From IMG/VR virus record IMGVR_UViG_3300025679_000005: a stretch of 64,000 nt of DNA; one strand, 5' to 3'. The notes under the pieces were generated by a model. That model saw only the letters and a program-made list of their open reading frames with translations, was not told the origin of the DNA and ran no database searches. Every line of letters starts with the position of its first letter. Position 1 is the stretch's first letter. This document shows, one piece after another, positions 1-17,819 of the stretch. Both the position numbers and the translations under genes were made by a program. This stretch comes from a virus. Its lineage: Duplodnaviria > Caudoviricetes.

Positions 1-2
1 TG

Positions 3-650
3 ACCACAGGTCGTGAAGTCTTATTGGGGGTACCTCGTAGGGACCCCGCCAACGATTCGGTGGGGCTGTACTATGCAAGCATTATCATCCCGTTGGACGC
101 CAATATAGGCGACTACCACCTTCGTTGGACGTTCCGAGAGACCTTGGGTGGTAAGGTCAATCAGGTAGTTCAACAATTCAATGTCATCGACAAGGTGACC
201 TCGGGCTTGGTGTCTGTCGTCAACTGCTCAGAGGCGGCACTGATTAGAAGCTTGAGAATACTCCTAAGAGACCAGAATCCTTCGAGGAATTACCACTTTC
301 GTCCACCGGCCCACGAAGAAACCATTAGTCAATTCAACAAGGTCTTTGGCTACATCTGGGAAGATGAGGAACTAGGAGAGTACCTCATCAGGTCTCTGGA
401 CATGGTCACAGCTGCTCCTCCGCGAACGCCCATCCCTACCGTCGACATCTTGGTTCGAGATTACCCAGAATGGCGAACGCTAGTGATCAACGGGGCCATG
501 ATGTACGCCTTGCTGGCTTTGGCAATCAACTGGGTGTCGGATGAATTTTCCGTTGGGGGCGAAACACCCGTTAAAGTCATCTTGGGCGACGGGGAGGAAG
601 TCATTCTTCCTATTGAAGAACTTTATGCTATAATCCACGAGGAATCATGA
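3..650 (+). CDS. Fractured gene part 1: N-extein of a putative head-tail adaptor/neck protein fused to split intein N-fragment (5' end lies outside the window)
   Basis: Frame is open from position 3. Helical extein ends ...AINWVSDEF, followed by intein block A-like SVGGETPVKV...PIEELY and a TGA that overlaps the next ATG (ATGA, 647-650). Confidence 0.8.
   Translation, partial: TTGREVLLGVPRRDPANDSVGLYYASIIIPLDANIGDYHLRWTFRETLGGKVNQVVQQFNVIDKVTSGLVSVVNCSEAALIRSLRILLRDQNPSRNYHFRPPAHEETISQFNKVFGYIWEDEELGEYLIRSLDMVTAAPPRTPIPTVDILVRDYPEWRTLVINGAMMYALLALAINWVSDEFSVGGETPVKVILGDGEEVILPIEELYAIIHEES
549..647 (+). other. Split intein N-fragment (IntN, 33 aa, Ser1)
   Basis: SVGGETPVKVILGDGEEVILPIEELYAIIHEES matches the intein block A pattern (S/C-x-x-G-D/E-T-x-V...I-E-E/D-L). 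Confidence 0.85.
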
Positions 651-1600
651 AACTTCTGTCTAAAAGACAAGCCTGTCTTCAATACGGGTTCAACTTTAGG
701 ACAGTGGGCACGCTAATTGACAGCGGTATTCTCAGAATAGCCTCAAATAGCACCCCTCTTCGTCCAAAAATAGTGGGCTTTGAGGATCTTGTTGAGGGTA
801 CGCACTACATAGTGTGTCTGGAGTGTGGAGCATTTCAGACCCAGTTGTCTAGTAAGCATCTTTCAGCTTGTGCAGGTATCTCACTAGAGGCGTATTTGAA
901 TGCGCACCCCGGAGCGGCTCTGCTGGCCGCGTCTTGTAATAAGACGAAAACAGAAGCCCAGAAGACAGCCCAATCTGAGTTGCTCAAAGCGAGATTTAAG
1001 ACTGAGGCAGGGGAAGTCACTCGAAAGCAAATTGCAGTGGCTGCTCTAAAATTGCAAGCTTCCGGTTACCGTGAGCAGGCTTCGGAGCATCTCCGTACAC
1101 TTAATAGCGACCCCCAGCAAAAAGCCGCTCGTTCTAGAGAGACTAAAGCTAGGTGGGCTTCCGGAGAGGTACCTATTGTCCAAAATGCTTGGATGGGTGA
1201 GCATTGGGAGGAGGTCCTCGAATCCGCTGCGTACGCCCGTAGGCATATCAAGCGAAAATTCACTAAACCTCATGCAAGAGTCAAAGAAGCTGTTGAGGCC
1301 TCGGGCCTTGTGGGGTTCATTACTGAATATGAGACCGGGTATTACTCCATAGATGAGGCCCGCCCGGATCTACGTTTGGCTGTAGAGATTGATGGGTGTT
1401 ACTGGCATGGCTGTGGAGAGTGTGGCTTTCCGGGAGTGGGCCGCATCAAACAGTACGATGCTAGTAAAACAACCTATCTGAACAATCGTGGGTGGACTAT
1501 TGTCCGCCTCCTTGAGCATGAGATCAAGGCTGATTTAGAATGGTGCATCCGTAAAGTTACGGAGACTGTAAAAACTCTCTCTGAACGAGGTGTCTTATGA
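647..1600 (+). CDS. Free-standing Vsr-like/DUF559 (EDxHD-type) homing endonuclease with N-terminal Zn finger
   Basis: EGTHYIVCLECG...KHLSAC Zn finger; C-terminal YSIDEARPDLRLAVEIDGCYWHGC...KTTYLNNRGWTIVRLLEHE nuclease motifs; ATGA overlaps at both ends. Confidence 0.8.
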   Translation: MKLLSKRQACLQYGFNFRTVGTLIDSGILRIASNSTPLRPKIVGFEDLVEGTHYIVCLECGAFQTQLSSKHLSACAGISLEAYLNAHPGAALLAASCNKTKTEAQKTAQSELLKARFKTEAGEVTRKQIAVAALKLQASGYREQASEHLRTLNSDPQQKAARSRETKARWASGEVPIVQNAWMGEHWEEVLESAAYARRHIKRKFTKPHARVKEAVEASGLVGFITEYETGYYSIDEARPDLRLAVEIDGCYWHGCGECGFPGVGRIKQYDASKTTYLNNRGWTIVRLLEHEIKADLEWCIRKVTETVKTLSERGVL

Positions 1601-2007
1601 CAATATGCATAGAAACACGTAAGACCACCATTCGTGAGGCTTTTAGGGCAGGACAGCTTCGAGTTTTGGCTGTAGACCCCACATCTGGAACTACTAGTCT
1701 TTGCAAAATCTCTGATGTGATGCGGCACAACACCTCACATAAAAGTATGACCCGAACTACAGTCCAGGACGGACGTTTCGTGGATACGACGGTAGATCAC
1801 TCTCTGTTTTTCAGATCCGGTGATGGTGTGACTCCGGTACAAGCTGAGGAGATAAGAGTAGGAGATGTGATCGCATCTGTGGACGGGGTTCTAGAAGATG
1901 CTGTTGTGGCAAACGTGGAGAGACTGCCAGCTCAAGAGCACACCTACGATCTGTCTGTTCCCGGGCCAGAGAACTTCGTGCTTGCGAACGGTATCCTAGC
2001 CCACAAT
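1597..2007 (+). other. Split intein C-fragment (IntC, 137 aa, ends His-Asn, +1 Ser)
   Basis: Blocks B, F and G are all in this ORF. CAC-AAT-TCC (H-N-S) at 2002-2010. Confidence 0.88.
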
Positions 2008-2235
2008 TCCTACTCTATTGGAGGCGTTTCTCTGGAAATCGAAAAAGCATCCAAGTATGAATCTCTCTACCAGACGCTGAAGGATCAGTTCGATTCGCAG
2101 CTCGACAAAGCCAAGGCCACGGTCAAGTTCGTCAGAGGCTTGCAGCAGCCCAAGTTCGGGATTGGCATCCGATCCAGCTTTGGCCCCTATGTAGGTGGGG
2201 GTGTGCTAAGCCCCAGGCAGTTCGTAGGGTTCTAA
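1597..2235 (+). CDS. Fractured gene part 2: split intein C-fragment fused to 75-aa C-extein
   Basis: Block B TTVDHSLF, block F TYDLSVPGPENFVLANG, block G ILAHN|S. The extein continues SYSIGGVSLEIEKASKY. Confidence 0.88.
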   Translation: MTICIETRKTTIREAFRAGQLRVLAVDPTSGTTSLCKISDVMRHNTSHKSMTRTTVQDGRFVDTTVDHSLFFRSGDGVTPVQAEEIRVGDVIASVDGVLEDAVVANVERLPAQEHTYDLSVPGPENFVLANGILAHNSYSIGGVSLEIEKASKYESLYQTLKDQFDSQLDKAKATVKFVRGLQQPKFGIGIRSSFGPYVGGGVLSPRQFVGF

Positions 2236-2251: not shown

Positions 2252-2279
2252 TTGACTTTATTGGAGTTTTGGTTACTAT
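2252..2279 (+). promoter_or_regulatory. sigma70-like promoter TTGACT-N16-TACTAT, probably giving a leaderless transcript
   Basis: -35 at 2252-2257, -10 at 2274-2279, ATG at 2285. Confidence 0.5.
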
Positions 2280-2284
2280 GCAGG

Positions 2285-3859
2285 ATGCCTTCTGTCTGCC
2301 AACACTGCCAAAAGCACTTTCCTAACTCCGATATCGTAAACTCTCGCCACAAGGCTGTATGTGCCGGCTGGCAATCAGAGGTGGGCTCCGTCAAGCCTTT
2401 GGCGTGCCTGTGCGGGCACAAGTCCACTTCGATGACTCAGATGAAGAGGCATCGCTCCACGTGCTCCTCGTGGAAATCTCGTGATAGGGGCGAGGTGCAG
2501 ATGGCCCGCTTGGCTAAGACGCTTCAAGCAAACTATGGCCAAGACGTTGCCCATCCTAGGCAGCTTGCAGAGGCTGAGGCACGTCGGAAGGCAACGTTGA
2601 AGGAGCGCTATGGGGCAGAGAACGTATTCAGTAGAGAGTCTTCTCTGTATACTAAAGTCCGTGAGGCAGGTGATGCCAATCGAAAACCTCTGTATGGAGA
2701 GGCTAACCCGTTCTCTTGGCCAGAGGTTCAGGAGAAAATTCGACAGACAAACCTAGACAAGTTTGGGGTTGAGAACCCTCAACAGAGTCCTGAAGTACGC
2801 TCAAAGACTCAGGCGACTAATTTGGAGAGGTATGGCGTAGAGGAGATTTTGGCAGCCCCGGCCATTAGACGCCGAATTGAAGCTACCAATGAGGCTCTCT
2901 ATGGTGGCCCTACCCCATCATGCTCACCAGGGGTTGTGGAGAGGGCTAGGCAAACCAATCTTGAGCGGTGGGGGGTCGAGTGGACGGCTCAGCACCCAGA
3001 GATTCGTAGGCAGCAATTGGAGACGATGATTGAGAACTACGGATCCCATTTCTTTGCCTCAGAGGTGGGACGTACAGTAATTCGAGAGCGCCTGGTTGAA
3101 AAGTATGGTGTGGATCATTCGGCAAAGATCGACGGCTTTTGGGATAGGTTGGTGGCTACCTTCGTTCGTAAGTATGGAGTCACCCATCCTTTGCTTTTGG
3201 CTGAGTTTTTAGAGGCACGTAGGGAAACGTGTCAAGAACGATACGGCGTCGACAATCCCCTACAGAGCCCTGAAGTCTACGCTCGTTTGATTGAGACAGT
3301 GCGGGTTCGATATGGGGTTGACTGTGTCTTTCAAGCAGAGTTTGTGAAAGAGGCATCAAGACAGACCAATACCGATAGGTACGGCCGCCCCTATTTTCTT
3401 AGCTCAGATACCCATAAACAGGACAATATTGCAAAGTACGGCGTACCTCATCCGATGATGAATCGCGAATACGCCTTGGCTCATTTAGAGAAGATGTCGA
3501 GACCAGGCCCAAATCTTCTCGAACGTCGCTTTGCCTCAGCGCACCCCACTTTGATGTATGTCGGCAACGGTGCCTACTGGAGGTGGCTACCAAAACTGGG
3601 GCACCATAAGAACCCTGACTTCATCTTGCCCGGCCCAGACTCGGAGCATCCAAAGAAGGGTGTGACCAAGATTGTTGAGTTGTTTGGGGACTACTGGCAC
3701 TCCAAGATTTTTACGGGGAAGGCCGATTTTGACCACGAGCAGGAGCTGGTTGCAGCTTATGCGGAATCTGGATACCGGTGTCTGATCGTCTGGGAGTCAG
3801 AATTCAAGCAGAATCCGCAGGAAGTCAACGAACGGGTACACACTTTCCTCAGCGTCTGA
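2285..3859 (+). CDS. Free-standing Vsr-like endonuclease with two C2HC Zn fingers and about 14 YG repeats
   Basis: Repeats such as ERYGVENP; C-terminal KNPDF...IVELFGDYWHS...GYRCLIVWESE. The ORF track starts at TTG 2252; ATG 2285 is preferred because the promoter overlaps 2252. Confidence 0.75.
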   Translation: MPSVCQHCQKHFPNSDIVNSRHKAVCAGWQSEVGSVKPLACLCGHKSTSMTQMKRHRSTCSSWKSRDRGEVQMARLAKTLQANYGQDVAHPRQLAEAEARRKATLKERYGAENVFSRESSLYTKVREAGDANRKPLYGEANPFSWPEVQEKIRQTNLDKFGVENPQQSPEVRSKTQATNLERYGVEEILAAPAIRRRIEATNEALYGGPTPSCSPGVVERARQTNLERWGVEWTAQHPEIRRQQLETMIENYGSHFFASEVGRTVIRERLVEKYGVDHSAKIDGFWDRLVATFVRKYGVTHPLLLAEFLEARRETCQERYGVDNPLQSPEVYARLIETVRVRYGVDCVFQAEFVKEASRQTNTDRYGRPYFLSSDTHKQDNIAKYGVPHPMMNREYALAHLEKMSRPGPNLLERRFASAHPTLMYVGNGAYWRWLPKLGHHKNPDFILPGPDSEHPKKGVTKIVELFGDYWHSKIFTGKADFDHEQELVAAYAESGYRCLIVWESEFKQNPQEVNERVHTFLSV

Positions 3860-7074: not shown

Positions 7075-7731
7075 ATGTCAAAACGTGTAAATGCCCAGGA
7101 TCCTCATGAAGAGAGCGTTCGTGTGGTCTGGCATGAGCCGACGCAGTTCGACCCCTTGCGACACGGCCCGCCCTATCTTCCCAAGGCATCCTACGAGCCT
7201 GTAAAACTCAGCAGCCAGCAACGTGGCGAAATCCAGGGCCTGGTCAAGAAGGCGGCCTTAATTACGGCCGAATACGAAACGTCTATGACCTCGATGCTGG
7301 CGATGCTTCAGGCATTGGCCATGCTCCATCAATCGCATCATTGGAGCACGTCGGGCGCTAGCTTCTTCCAAGACCACTTGCTTTTCGAGAGGCTCTACAA
7401 CGAGTCTCTCGAACTTATTGATCAGTTGGCGGAGAGAATTGTGGGTTCGGGGGACACTCCGAACATCGGTGCCGCCTTTCAAGTAGGCATCATGAGCCGT
7501 ATCCTGGGTTCGTTAGGGGTAGGGGGCCTCCCTACGGACATGATCGCAATCAGTCTGGCCGCAGAGACCTCCTGTGTGGCCGCAGTTGCACAGCTCATTG
7601 CAAGTAAAACAGCAGACGGAACCCTAAGTCATGGGATTTCTAAGCTCCTTGAAGACATTGCCGACAAGCACGAGACCTTCGTGTATTTGCTCAGTCAGCG
7701 CTCTAAGACGGAGTCCTACGACTTCCGTTGA
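7075..7731 (+). CDS. dps: Dps/ferritin-like protein with N-terminal extension
   Basis: HQSHHWSTSGASFFQDHLLFERLY...DQLAERI matches the Dps signature (HW...G..F...H.LFE..Y...D.LAER). Confidence 0.8.
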   Translation: MSKRVNAQDPHEESVRVVWHEPTQFDPLRHGPPYLPKASYEPVKLSSQQRGEIQGLVKKAALITAEYETSMTSMLAMLQALAMLHQSHHWSTSGASFFQDHLLFERLYNESLELIDQLAERIVGSGDTPNIGAAFQVGIMSRILGSLGVGGLPTDMIAISLAAETSCVAAVAQLIASKTADGTLSHGISKLLEDIADKHETFVYLLSQRSKTESYDFR

Positions 7732-7753: not shown

Positions 7754-8782
7754 ATGAAAAATGAAGCAAAGCCAGGAAACACTCTAGGAATTGGCTTAGA
7801 CATCGGCACAATGAATATTGTGTCCGCCAGGACCAAGGAAAACGGCGTTGTCACCAAGCGTGTCCGTGACGCCTTCTTGGACCTCGACCCTGACGCCAAG
7901 CGCAGCTTGAAGATGTCCAAGGTCGATTATGTGGAGCGAGAATCTGACAACGTATTGTTGGTACTGGGTGACTCAGCTTTGACGATGGCAAACTTGTTCA
8001 AGCGGGAGGCTCGTCGACCCCTCAGCCGCGGTCTCATCGCCGCTGGTGAAATAGACGCCCAGGAGGTCTTGAGCCTCTTGATCAATCAGGTCTTGGGCGA
8101 CCCTCAGGTGGACAGTGAACACTGCTTCTACAGCGTCCCTGCGGCCCCTATCGATGACCCTTCACAGGACGTGATCTATCACACGGAAGTCTTCCGTAAG
8201 ATCGTCCGTGACGCGGGCTTTTCGGCCCACCCCATGAACGAGGCCATGGCCATCATCTACAGCCAGTGTGCCGAGGAGAGCTTCTCCGGACTGGCCGTGA
8301 GCTTCGGTGCTGGTATGGCGAACATCGCCCTGTCCTACCAGGCGAACAAGGCATTGGAGTTCGCCCTAGCTCGTGGTGGGGATTGGATCGATGCTCAGTC
8401 GGCCAAGGCCATGGGTAAGACGGCTTCCCAGATGTGCGCCATCAAAGAGAAGGGTGTCGACCTTCGCACGCCCAACGGACGTGAGGAGCAGGCCATCGTT
8501 CTCTACGTGAGGGCCCTCATCAACTACACCCTACAGAACGTGGCGGCTCAATTCAAGAAGGTGCAGAACGATGTCAGCCTTCCAGAGCCCATCCCCTTCA
8601 TCGTCTCCGGCGGTACCACTAAGGCGGCAGGCTTTCTCGAAATATTCAAGGAAGAGTTCGATACCGTCAAGAAGAGGTTCCCGATTCAGATCAGCGAGAT
8701 CCGTATCGCCAAGGACCCGATGACGGCGGTGGCTGAGGGCATGCTAGTACTGGCTTCGGAAGAACACGAATCCGACAAGTGA
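7754..8782 (+). CDS. Actin-fold ATPase (MreB/FtsA/ParM superfamily)
   Basis: Phosphate-1 GLDIGTMNI, connect-1 MNEAMAIIY, phosphate-2 SFGAGMAN, adenosine VSGGTT, connect-2 DPMTAVAEG. Confidence 0.85.
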   Translation: MKNEAKPGNTLGIGLDIGTMNIVSARTKENGVVTKRVRDAFLDLDPDAKRSLKMSKVDYVERESDNVLLVLGDSALTMANLFKREARRPLSRGLIAAGEIDAQEVLSLLINQVLGDPQVDSEHCFYSVPAAPIDDPSQDVIYHTEVFRKIVRDAGFSAHPMNEAMAIIYSQCAEESFSGLAVSFGAGMANIALSYQANKALEFALARGGDWIDAQSAKAMGKTASQMCAIKEKGVDLRTPNGREEQAIVLYVRALINYTLQNVAAQFKKVQNDVSLPEPIPFIVSGGTTKAAGFLEIFKEEFDTVKKRFPIQISEIRIAKDPMTAVAEGMLVLASEEHESDK

Positions 8783-9952: not shown

Positions 9953-10374
9953 TGCCGAAATTCACTTTTGAGTGTGCCTGCGAGACCCAATTTACCCGCA
10001 CCCTAAAGATGGGTGAGCACAAGACCCATGAGTGCCCTGCTTGTGGCAAAGACGCCACTAGGGTTTGGGAGGGCTTTGGGTTCGCTTTTGCCCCAGGAGG
10101 TAAGGCCCCGGCCAACTCTGGGGTGTCCAAGCATGACTATCCTACGGCGGATTATGCTGTGGGCAGTGACGCGGATAAGCGCTGGCAGGAGCATGCTGCC
10201 AGGGAAGTGGTGAAGTCCAAGGTACGGAAAAAGGGTGGAACCCACGCTTTGATTCGGGAAACCGGCAAAGACTACATCGAATACAAGGCCGGGTCAGATG
10301 GCCTCATCAAGGGCCGAAAGGGTCTGGCCAAAGAGGTCAAAGAGATTCGTGCCAAACAAAAAGGCGAGACTTGA
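9952..10374 (+). CDS. FmdB-family Zn-ribbon protein
   Basis: MPKFTFECAC...HECPACGKDATRV pattern. Confidence 0.7.
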   Translation: MPKFTFECACETQFTRTLKMGEHKTHECPACGKDATRVWEGFGFAFAPGGKAPANSGVSKHDYPTADYAVGSDADKRWQEHAAREVVKSKVRKKGGTHALIRETGKDYIEYKAGSDGLIKGRKGLAKEVKEIRAKQKGET

Positions 10375-11135
10375 TGAGAGGGGCCGCCGATGGTGAGGCT
10401 GTTGTGTACGTGGCAACATGCTCTGTTAACGGCAAGATCTACATTGGCATTACGTCCAAAAATCTGAAGGTGCGCAAAAGAGCACACCTCAATTCAGCTA
10501 GTAGGGGTTCCCCCTACTACTTCCATCGAGCCTTGCGGAAGTACGGTGCCAATGCCTTTGTTTGGGAAGTAGTGGCCCATGTACCAACCTGGCAAGCTGC
10601 TTGTGCTAGGGAAATCGCACTTATCCAGCAATATGACACACGCAATCCTCAGAAAGGTTACAACAGCACTAGTGGTGGGGAGGGGTCATTAGGGGTGCGT
10701 GCTCCCGACAGTGTCTTGGAGCAGATTAGCCAGACTCTTAAGGCTTGGCATGCATCTGATGACCAGAAAGCCAAGGCATTGCGGGAGAAAGTCAGCCACA
10801 CTAAACGAGGGTCTGTCTCTAGTCTTGAGACTAGGTTGAAGCAGGCCGAGGGGAGTCGTAATAGGCCCCCTTTATCCGATGCCTCCAGGGCAAAGTTGAG
10901 CGCTTCGAAGCGTAAGTACTCTGATGAGGTAGTCACTGAAGTTACGGCATATGCCCTAGAGCACGGTTTTCGAGCCGCCGAACGGCAATACGGTATTCCT
11001 AGGCCAACTATTCGACGCTGGACGTGGGACCTAGAGAGGCTCATTCAGGAGAAGTCTAAGATGTCCGAGAGAAATCGTACTCGACAATACAGATACGCTT
11101 TTCCTGTCGCTACTCCTCTTGTGCTCAAACCCTAG
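10371..11135 (+). CDS. GIY-YIG homing endonuclease
   Basis: VVYVATC..NGKIYIGIT...RKRAH...ALRKYG..AF.WEV...EIALI...GYN; C-terminal NUMOD/HTH-like segments. Confidence 0.9.
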   Translation: MMRGAADGEAVVYVATCSVNGKIYIGITSKNLKVRKRAHLNSASRGSPYYFHRALRKYGANAFVWEVVAHVPTWQAACAREIALIQQYDTRNPQKGYNSTSGGEGSLGVRAPDSVLEQISQTLKAWHASDDQKAKALREKVSHTKRGSVSSLETRLKQAEGSRNRPPLSDASRAKLSASKRKYSDEVVTEVTAYALEHGFRAAERQYGIPRPTIRRWTWDLERLIQEKSKMSERNRTRQYRYAFPVATPLVLKP

Positions 11136-16550: not shown

Positions 16551-17819
16551 ATGGCAACCGGCGTACCAAAAATTGAGTGGCTCAATGACCCTTCCGTCGT
16601 TCTATCCGGGCAGCGAGGCAAGCTCGTTGACTTCGATCGCGAGCGATCGCGACGCAAGGGCGATCCAGCGTTCACTCGGCTGCGAAGCGCCGCCACTGGA
16701 AAGCTAGAGAGCCGGCTCTACTGGGCAGACAATCTCGATGTGCTCAGTAGCCTGAGCAACGACTCCTCTATCTGCGGAAAGGTCCGGCTGATCTATATTG
16801 ATCCGCCTTACGCCACGAACAGCGTATTTCAGTCCAAGGCAATGAAGCCGGCCTACGCGGACGTGCTGACGGGCGAGCGCTATCTGTTATTCCTCCGTGC
16901 GCGCCTTGAGCTGCTTCGGGGCATGCTGGCTGACGATGGGTCAATCTACGTCCATCTGGACGAGACTATGGTGTTTCACGCCAAGGTGATGATGGATGAG
17001 ATCTTCGGAGCAAAGAACTTCCGCAGCTTCATCACTCGCCGGAAATGCAGCTCGAAGAACTACACGCATAAAACATATGGTGATGTCTCCGACTACATTC
17101 TTTTCTACACGAAGAGCGCGCAATATGTATGGAACCGACCGGTTGCCCCTTGGACCGATGAGCACGCTGACCGAGAGTACCCGTACGCTGAAGAAACTAC
17201 GGAACGCCGCTTCAAAAAAGTGCCGCTGCATGCGCCTGGCGTTCGCAATGGTCCTTGTGGAAAGCCATGGCGCGGCATGGCTCCGCCGGCAGGCAGGCAT
17301 TGGAAGACTACTCCAGCGAAGCTCGAGGCGCTGGACGCCAAGGGCGAGATCTACTGGTCTTCCACCGGAAACCCGCGCAAGAAGGTATACCTAGACGAAA
17401 GCAAGGGTGTTTCGGTCAGCAACCTTTGGATGGATTGCCGTGATGCTCACAATCAAAACGTGAAGATTACTGGCTATCCAACCGAGAAGAACGAAACGAT
17501 ATTGGACAGAATTGTGCGCGCATCGACCAACAAGGGGGATTTGGTGTTGGATTGCTTTTGCGGGTCCGGGACCACTCTTGCCGCAGCGCAAGCATTGGAT
17601 CGGCGATGGGTCGGCGTGGATAACAGCAAGGATGCAATCCTGACATCTATCAAGCGCCTTGCGCCGATGGCTGCCGATTCGTTGACCGTTCTGGCGCCCG
17701 CCACATTGGCCGCTGACGGCAAGGACGCTCGCTCGTTGATGACTGCTATCGTCTCCAGAGCGAAACAGTCACCCGCTATAAAGGCCGCCAAAAAGGCGCC
17801 TCGGGGACTGGCCAAGTAG
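16551..17819 (+). CDS. Site-specific DNA methyltransferase, beta class (N6-adenine or N4-cytosine)
   Basis: Motif IV DPPY precedes motif I DCFCGSGTT; also GSIYVHLD and YPTEKNE. Confidence 0.92.
   Translation: MATGVPKIEWLNDPSVVLSGQRGKLVDFDRERSRRKGDPAFTRLRSAATGKLESRLYWADNLDVLSSLSNDSSICGKVRLIYIDPPYATNSVFQSKAMKPAYADVLTGERYLLFLRARLELLRGMLADDGSIYVHLDETMVFHAKVMMDEIFGAKNFRSFITRRKCSSKNYTHKTYGDVSDYILFYTKSAQYVWNRPVAPWTDEHADREYPYAEETTERRFKKVPLHAPGVRNGPCGKPWRGMAPPAGRHWKTTPAKLEALDAKGEIYWSSTGNPRKKVYLDESKGVSVSNLWMDCRDAHNQNVKITGYPTEKNETILDRIVRASTNKGDLVLDCFCGSGTTLAAAQALDRRWVGVDNSKDAILTSIKRLAPMAADSLTVLAPATLAADGKDARSLMTAIVSRAKQSPAIKAAKKAPRGLAK

Follow-up and report, generated by a model that had tools for sequence, protein, structure and literature searches.

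A probable head-to-tail adaptor gene of a huge peat phage, fractured around a homing-endonuclease gene and apparently rejoined as protein by a split intein

The subject of this study is the locus at positions 3-2235 of a 64,000-nucleotide (nt) stretch of DNA from the virus record IMGVR_UViG_3300025679_000005 (Duplodnaviria; Caudoviricetes). The whole stretch is referred to as the window. The locus is very probably a genuine 'fractured gene' from a huge, uncultured phage of peat: a homing-endonuclease gene divides the coding sequence of the probable adaptor in two, and protein trans-splicing would join the two products. The trick itself is known; the adaptor gene is a new and unusually busy target for it. 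If this is true, trans-splicing is extended from replication and packaging enzymes to a virion building block present in ~12 copies per particle, and particle assembly depends on a post-translational ligation. The interest lies in the structural host gene, in the serine chemistry combined with a short N-terminal fragment, and in the family-wide coexistence of contiguous, split and nuclease-fused forms.

Three open reading frames (ORFs) on the + strand fill positions 3-2235. ORF1 (3-650) is open at its 5' end, where the window start cuts the gene; alignment to a contiguous homologue of 297 amino acids (aa), P0002, indicates that ~40 N-terminal residues are missing. Its stop codon lies at 648-650. 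ORF2 (647-1600) encodes 317 aa and ORF3 (1597-2235) encodes 212 aa. No internal stops or frameshifts were found in these ORFs. The parts of the locus are as follows.

3-548, + strand: N-extein, residues ~41-222 of an adaptor-like protein of ~297 aa, with an immunoglobulin-like (Ig-like) N-domain and most of the helical domain; 91-92% identity to P0002 residues 41-222.
549-647, + strand: N-terminal intein fragment (Int-N), 33 aa, with Ser1, block A and the N2 helix (PIEELY); column-for-column alignment with contiguous inteins.
639-650, + strand: GAGGA ribosome site (639-643), 3 nt 5' of the ORF2 ATG, and ATGA stop/start overlap (647-650); read directly in the sequence.
647-1600, + strand: ORF2, a free-standing homing-endonuclease gene, 317 aa; Pfam, PHROG and family-profile matches.
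1587-1600, + strand: GAGGT ribosome site (1587-1591), 5 nt 5' of the ORF3 ATG, and ATGA stop/start overlap (1597-1600); read directly in the sequence.
1597-2007, + strand: C-terminal intein fragment (Int-C), 137 aa, ending in His-Asn; Pfam, solved mini-inteins and motif conservation.
2008-2235, + strand: C-extein, 75 aa plus stop, with the +1 Ser at 2008, starting SYSIGGVSLEIEK and corresponding to residues 223-297 of the adaptor-like protein; 87% identity to P0002 over matched residues 216-293.

This layout bears out a preliminary description of the DNA, which had placed a 33-aa Int-N at the end of ORF1, a 137-aa Int-C at the start of ORF3 and a free-standing Vsr-like endonuclease between them. 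Both intein halves were seen, the second with a Pfam Intein_splicing match on ORF3; ORF2 matched DUF559, and its family profile agreed. The ATGA overlaps were read at exactly the positions claimed, each with a GAGG upstream. With their own GAGG sites these overlaps are predicted to couple ORF2 to ORF1 and ORF3 to ORF2.

The two exteins appear to be parts of a single 297-residue protein. A search with the N-extein identified 518 proteins at E <= 0.001, and most of the 120 listed were ~296 aa long and uninterrupted. When the exteins were joined in silico they were colinear and gapless with ~300 uninterrupted homologues, in agreement with the earlier claim that the spliced ...AINWVSDEF-... would read as one continuous protein. 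The nearest homologue, the uninterrupted P0002, was 92% identical to the window. The joined window sequence ...INWVSDEF-SYSIGGVSLEIEK... was colinear with ...INWVADEFDYSIGGVSLSIEK... in P0002. At the junction P0002 has ...INWVADEFDYSIGGVSLSIEKSSKYESLYQ... and the window has ...INWVSDEF followed by SYSIGGVSLEIEKASKYESLYQ..., with no gap and a single change, from Asp in P0002 to the +1 Ser in the window.

An AlphaFold2 model of P0002, made with 56 homologues, was used to identify the host protein. In the model, strands within 3-102 form an Ig-like sandwich at the N-terminus, and helices at 115-259 make up a helical domain. VIA-align was used for an exhaustive structural comparison against 48,161 PDB representatives. 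The helical domain (115-271) matched phage neck and portal-tail chains from Pa223 (Z 11.1), KHP30 (10.6), cyanophage A4 (10.4), GP4 (10.1), SU10 (9.8), T4 gp13 (9.4), the phage 812 neck (9.4), the P1 connector (8.7) and others. Superpositions on neck and adaptor proteins gave root-mean-square deviations of 2.7-4.2 A over 96-130 residues at 8-16% sequence identity. All of the listed helical-domain matches (17/17) were phage neck or portal-tail structures, with no unrelated helical proteins among them, and it is this uniformity that carries the adaptor argument. Leads from Atlas features, all <0.9, were to Mu gp36, T4 gp13, the SU10 adaptor and gp6-like connectors. In Tunturiibacter phage Tunturi_5 the homologue, gp319, is an uninterrupted protein of 283 aa; its label 'head-tail connector protein' is an annotation and not an experiment. 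In relatives a head protein gene (phrog_240, E 6.8e-30) lies upstream of the adaptor gene. Downstream in the window follow large ORFs that are tentatively read as tail genes (sheath, fibre).

Several points weigh against an adaptor. The mean predicted local distance difference test (pLDDT) score of the P0002 model was a moderate 67, and the insertion site, between F222 and D223, lies where a loop modelled with low confidence begins, flanked by two long helices. The structure comparison tool warns that Z scores below ~13 can be generic for helical proteins or bundles. No Pfam or PHROG adaptor profile matched either extein. Other searches added little: Pfam run on 56 family members returned noise and no adaptor family, a sequence search of solved structures with the adaptor-family profile gave no relative, Foldseek hits in the PDB were uninformative and dominated by the N-terminal Ig-like domain, a BFVD structure search returned mostly unnamed proteins (including Bacillus phage G gp165), and an Atlas shape search was weak. 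On the basis of its fold and gene position, we felt that the host is quite probably a head-to-tail adaptor (neck) protein. This estimate is kept apart from the confidence in the gene fracture. The preliminary description had also found the host to look like a head-tail adaptor. The fold matches, the gene position and the Tunturi_5 annotation speak for that view, but the protein has no sequence-profile link to any named adaptor family.

The fracture and the split intein could be real and the host some other virion or neck-associated protein with an adaptor-like helical bundle. We consider this unlikely, though it is the strongest of the alternatives. The missing sequence profile fits it, Z scores of 9-11 are possibly generic for helical proteins, and the extra N-terminal Ig-like domain (1-108 in the fold matches) is unusual for adaptors. 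On the other side are the 17 uniform matches, the Atlas leads and a gene position between the head genes and the tail module. The helical core at 115-271 superposes on the solved adaptors (T4 gp13, SU10, Pa223, KHP30, GP4 and the P1 connector); no relationship to these was found at the profile level, and the window protein has the N-terminal Ig-like domain in addition.

A 143-aa gene just upstream of the adaptor gene in relatives (L004 4282-4713; L005 5561-5992; L032, L035, L037, L054 and others) encodes a paralogue of the adaptor's Ig-like domain with 25-35% identity. Ten IMG/VR loci with longer matches seemed to contain contiguous mini-inteins. These matches were in fact to the upstream paralogue, and the loci were rejected.

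The window's intein was examined together with others inserted at the same position of the adaptor, called site c, using an alignment of 12 contiguous and 4 split inteins. Int-N reads SVGGETPV...IEELY..., with Ser first (549-551); SVGGETPV aligns with block A of the 15 other site-c inteins, and Int-N lines up column for column with the first ~33 residues of the 12 contiguous ones. Int-C contains the NX motif Arg43-His44 (1723-1728), block B as T-V-D-H with His68 at 1798-1800, block F as YDLSVP, and block G as ILAHN with Asn137 at 2005-2007, followed by the +1 Ser. All 16 inteins were colinear, with Ser1, the N2 helix, the NX His, T-x-D-H, YDL-x-VP and AHN conserved throughout. The +1 residue was Ser or Thr in 16/16; the NX His was present in 16/16 and preceded by Arg or Lys in 14/16. 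An Arg/Lys-His NX motif has been described as a signature of inteins with Ser1 and Ser+1 or Thr+1 (PMC10189870). Judged from the alignment, the residues of a class 1 intein are all present, including the Ser1-specific NX Arg-His motif.

ORF3 matched Pfam Intein_splicing with E 3.6e-14. Int-C also matched solved mini-inteins, with Mja TFIIB (5o9i, E 1.6e-8) and Pho RadA (4e2u, E 3e-7) at the head of a range reaching 1.2e-6 that included Pho CDC21-1 (6rpp). It covers residues ~39-194 of these mini-inteins. Since the alignment starts at ~residue 39, the 33-aa Int-N would be the missing N-terminus of one HINT domain. The 33- and 137-aa fragments are together colinear with the contiguous inteins of 148-191 aa at site c. 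The split point is the loop after the N2 helix, which ranges from near nothing to ~50 residues in contiguous site-c inteins, so by alignment the split falls in a loop that is hypervariable in contiguous relatives. The preliminary description had argued that endonucleases insert between blocks B and F, not after residue 33, and that the locus is therefore not one broken intein. Its conclusion stands. The position itself is less foreign to inteins than was argued, being the hypervariable loop of contiguous relatives, and some alleles fuse the nuclease to Int-C.

Docking of the two fragments, each modelled with 13 extein residues, gave a score of 0.79 versus 0.02 for the best control, a level reached by 51/78 solved complexes and 2/108 mismatched pairs. 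Contact agreement between runs was at least 78% and partner pLDDT at least 72. The modelled contacts place Int-N against blocks B, F and G and the NX region of Int-C. The model suggests that Int-N and Int-C associate into one HINT fold. A point against giving this much weight is that solved structures include many inteins, on which a complex prediction can draw in order to pass; the pass may reflect likeness and is no proof of binding. Charge complementarity of the fragments has no more than local support, with Int-N at -7, the first 30 residues of Int-C at +2 and the whole of Int-C at -5.

The intein halves might merely hold the adaptor pieces together with no peptide bond being formed. The modelled docking would suffice for such an association, and a report on the split NrdA of phage Aeh1 (PMC3045599) documents a nuclease-split phage gene whose product is assembled without splicing. 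We regard this as very improbable for the window, however. The chemistry residues (Ser1, the NX His, the block-B His, the C-terminal His-Asn and the +1 Ser or Thr) are kept in 16/16 site-c inteins, and neck assembly would probably be hindered if each of ~12 subunits retained 170 aa of HINT domain in its conserved SIGG loop.

The fractured layout recurs in relatives. N-halves of 254-259 aa ending in a 33-aa Int-N at the same site were found in 5/120 listed relatives (P0013, P0029, P0044, P0081 and P0103). The complete loci L004, L067 and L077 contain the same three ORFs with start/stop overlaps. Amino-acid identity between the window and L004 was highest in the exteins (N-extein 71%, C-extein 76%), followed by Int-C (60%), the nuclease (59%) and Int-N (55%). 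In all five parts nonsynonymous differences (pN, 0.15-0.31 per site) were far below synonymous differences (pS, 0.72-0.96 per site), which indicates purifying selection on all of them. This bears on the idea that the locus is decaying, with the adaptor gene destroyed by nuclease insertion, the pieces non-functional and the adaptor supplied by another gene. Some room for that idea is left by the 64 kb examined out of a ~466-kb genome and by the truncation of ORF1 at the window start. However, there is no second adaptor copy within the 64-kb structural module, selection acts on exteins, intein and nuclease alike, the layout persists across alleles that are only 55-76% identical, and the ORFs of the window have no internal stops or frameshifts. 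Decay, like association without splicing, is very improbable.

A Logan contig with a k-mer depth of 88 covered positions 1-2400 with 0 differences. It comes from the probable source run, a peat metagenome, and from the same reads as the window; it is not sample-independent but excludes assembler-specific error, so the locus is very probably not an assembly artefact. The least credible alternative is that one contiguous intein with an internal endonuclease was turned into three frames by two indel errors: relatives P0317 and P0319 do have the nuclease in frame with Int-C and contigs, not raw reads, were compared across the junctions, but the 88x contig, made with an independent assembler, shows the identical sequence, the ORFs are separate and overlap at start and stop in four diverged loci, and both junctions have their own GAGG and ATG. 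On this evidence the earlier claim that the locus is not one intein broken by sequencing errors was sustained.

The Logan contig ends exactly at window position 1, where two 231-nt contigs abut. Contig ends at window positions 1-30 suggest a branch in the assembly graph, from strain variation or a repeat, inside the adaptor N-terminal domain. Fragments X2 and X3 of the nuclease gene, from two other studies, were identical but too short to interpret.

ORF2 has a DUF559/Vsr-like nuclease domain at aa ~199-307 and a Ros/MucR-like Cys2-His-Cys zinc finger at aa ~50-90. It matched Pfam DUF559 (E 5.6e-6, 26.6 bits against a cut-off of 20.6), more weakly Vsr, and PHROG endonuclease and homing-endonuclease families. 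The search for relatives found 53, nearly all of ~317-335 aa. A profile built from 37/53 of these matched 3hrl (DUF559, 5.7e-8), 3r3p (the I-Bth0305I catalytic domain, 7e-4), Ros 2jsp (0.011) and Vsr 1cw0 (0.12). E227, D249, G250, C251, W253, H254, G255, C256 and C259 are invariant in the nuclease family and D271 is ~90% conserved. The EDxHD family has a composite Glu/Asp/His/Asp motif (PMC3239194), and the conserved residues of ORF2 fit it as far as sequence goes, with a marginal 3r3p match.

Like I-Bth0305I/EDxHD (PMC3239194) and DUF559 (3hrl), ORF2 combines a C-terminal Vsr-like PD-(D/E)xK domain with a separate N-terminal DNA-binding module. Unlike that of I-Bth0305I, the module is a Ros/MucR zinc finger and not NUMOD or helix-turn-helix. 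I-Bth0305I is also without a zinc site, whereas the ORF2 family keeps a Vsr-type DGCxWHGC with invariant cysteines; the His spacing differs. In P0317, P0319 and P0320 a DUF559-type nuclease is in frame with Int-C and the C-extein (517-520 aa). These fusions may be an intermediate between a free-standing nuclease gene and a nuclease domain embedded in an intein at a non-canonical position.

A mechanism can be proposed for the fractured gene. One late transcript would carry the three translationally coupled ORFs, with ORF1 giving the N-extein with its 33-aa Int-N and ORF3 the 137-aa Int-C with the C-extein. According to the model, the two intein parts would dock as one HINT fold. Class-1 trans-splicing with oxyester chemistry would follow: an N-O shift at Ser1, assisted by the histidines of block B and the NX motif, then transesterification to Ser+1, cyclisation of Asn137 and an O-N shift. 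The product of ~297 aa, ...NWVSDEF-SYSIGGVSL..., would then assemble on the portal; its predicted junction peptide is ...NWVSDEFSYSIGGVSLEIEK. The most likely role of ORF2 is to cleave alleles of this gene that have no intein, carried by co-infecting relatives, and repair would then copy the entire Int-N/nuclease/Int-C cassette, which amounts to homing. The intein would render the insertion harmless to the host gene. The split probably originated when a nuclease gene landed in the hypervariable loop of a contiguous mini-intein already at site c. It must be held against this scheme that both the splicing and the homing are steps we infer.

The adaptor family as a whole is an intein hot spot, with contiguous and split inteins at the same sites and some nuclease-Int-C fusions, which is new here. 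A profile search of 1.84 billion representatives generated 478 adaptor relatives, many with inserts or odd ends. Reading of these relatives identified at least three insertion sites in a protein of ~300 aa.

Site a: after ...LRDN, an intein from Cys to Asn, then (Cys/Ser)-PDRNY.
Site b: after ...PDRNY, an intein from Ser to His-Asn, then (Thr/Ser)-F-(R/A)-PP.
Site c, that of the window: after ...DEF, an intein from Ser to Ala-His-Asn, then Ser-Tyr-Ser.

A further site is probably present near the C-terminus (P0221). The C-terminal insert of P0197 was not counted as a site because it had no Pfam intein match. Sites a, b and c were each seen as a contiguous mini-intein and as a split form. Two sites can be occupied in one gene: P0130, P0166 and P0181 are contiguous at a and split at c, P0170 and P0179 are split at a and contiguous at c, and P0146 is contiguous at both. 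The 485-kb phage LR745208.1 (L002 4121-6495) has its adaptor gene fractured at site a, after ...LRDQ, by a Cys1/Cys+1 split intein with a 33-aa Int-N, and is uninterrupted at site c. Between the halves lies a gene for a TnsA-like nuclease (PF08722, E 1.2e-9), which is unrelated to ORF2; the Int-C of this phage is nevertheless homologous to that of the window (27% identity, E 2e-11).

Several results bear on mobility. The N-extein of the split allele P0013 is 95% identical to that of the intein-free P0012. On a FastTree phylogeny of N-exteins (161 rows) the intein state at site c required 16 changes for 18 intein-bearing rows, and shuffled labels gave a mean of 17.6 and a minimum of 14. Intein presence at site c is thus almost unclustered on the extein tree; part of this scatter comes from the use of cluster representatives as rows, which inflates it. 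Most intein-free alleles have Asp (101) as the +1 residue, and the others have Ser (19), Gly (11), Asn (7), Glu (4) or Gln (1). Alleles with Ser may be relics of intein loss or sites receptive to insertion. When the window was compared with the nearest intein-free allele, the 60-nt segment at the junction was the most diverged (65% versus 81% overall), with other segments reaching 70%. The mismatch excess just 3' of the junction is weak; it is a hint only and does not demonstrate a co-conversion tract.

A broader proposal is that the adaptor gene is a natural laboratory of intein evolution. It would combine three or four sites at the least, inteins that are orthologous whether contiguous or split, two unrelated nuclease families (DUF559/Vsr-like and TnsA-like) in the same loop, and nuclease-Int-C fusions. 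Obligatory trans-splicing may even have been co-opted, either as a checkpoint at which completion of the neck waits for both halves or as one element of a weapon that works by nuclease-driven marker exclusion on co-infecting relatives. Taken as a whole this is speculative and rather improbable. With contiguous, split and nuclease-fused forms at one site, it can be tested directly whether split inteins originate through invasion by a nuclease gene.

Dassa et al. 2009 described 27 fractured gene loci, mainly from phage and half of them with a Vsr-like nuclease (PMC2677866). The hosts were DNA-synthesis/repair (DNA-metabolism) enzymes, terminase and one protein of unknown function, and the terminase intein alone was split after motif N1, with a 122-aa Int-C (PMC2677866). 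The window resembles these loci in having the host N-part with Int-N, a free-standing endonuclease, and Int-C with the host C-part on one strand, and its intein is likewise split after N1. It differs in three respects. Its host is a virion neck protein, its ORFs overlap by ATGA where the loci of Dassa et al. have 27-51-nt spacers before the endonuclease gene, and its host gene also has contiguous orthologous inteins, other sites and nuclease-Int-C fusions. The full-text literature, the coverage of which is incomplete, yielded no account of an adaptor or neck protein of a phage that contains an intein, so that this is absence of evidence only.

Split inteins with Ser1/Ser+1 and atypically split inteins are known but few, and cysteine-independent split inteins with a short N-fragment are rare. 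AceL-TerL, GOS-TerL and VidaL are atypically split inteins. The natural class-1 intein PolB16 OarG (Pasch et al. 2023, PMC10189870) is also atypically split and has Ser1/Ser+1 and an Arg/Lys-His NX motif. The window intein is like it in its short Int-N, long Int-C, Ser1/Ser+1 and NX motif, a likeness by description and not by sequence comparison. The Int-N of PolB16 OarG has 15 aa (PMC10189870) compared to 33 aa in the window, and the host is a neck protein, unlike the polymerase and terminase hosts of PolB16 OarG and the TerL inteins. The Mja TFIIB intein has Ser1 with Ser+1 or Thr+1 (PMC10189870). Along with the Pho RadA and Pho CDC21-1 mini-inteins it shares the HINT blocks of the window intein, and these three are the best sequence matches of Int-C; unlike the window intein, they are contiguous, archaeal and located in information-processing proteins. 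Such inteins, with a short N-fragment and no need of cysteine, are wanted for the semi-synthesis of proteins in oxidising conditions. Many natural Ser1/Ser+1 variants exist in the adaptor family, and each can be compared with a contiguous orthologue.

Other genes of the window were noted in passing. Directly after the fractured gene, at 2252-3859 (+), is a second free-standing homing-endonuclease-like gene with DUF7487 repeats (E 6.8e-44), a weakly Vsr-like nuclease part at the C-terminus and a match to phrog_3339 'homing endonuclease' (E 6.6e-36). A homologue occupies the same place in LR745208.1 (L002 6624-8057) and is absent from L004 and L088. A GIY-YIG homing endonuclease gene (phrog_314, E 8.5e-27) at 10371-11135 (+), within the structural module, is the third nuclease gene in 11 kb. 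Between the neck and tail genes are genes for a Dps/ferritin-like protein at 7075-7731 (+) (phrog_3636; Pfam Ferritin) and an actin-fold protein at 7754-8782 (+) (Pfam Volactin), and the same order is kept in the relative L004. A DNA methyltransferase gene (phrog_67, E 1.2e-40) is embedded in the tail region at 16551-17819 (+).

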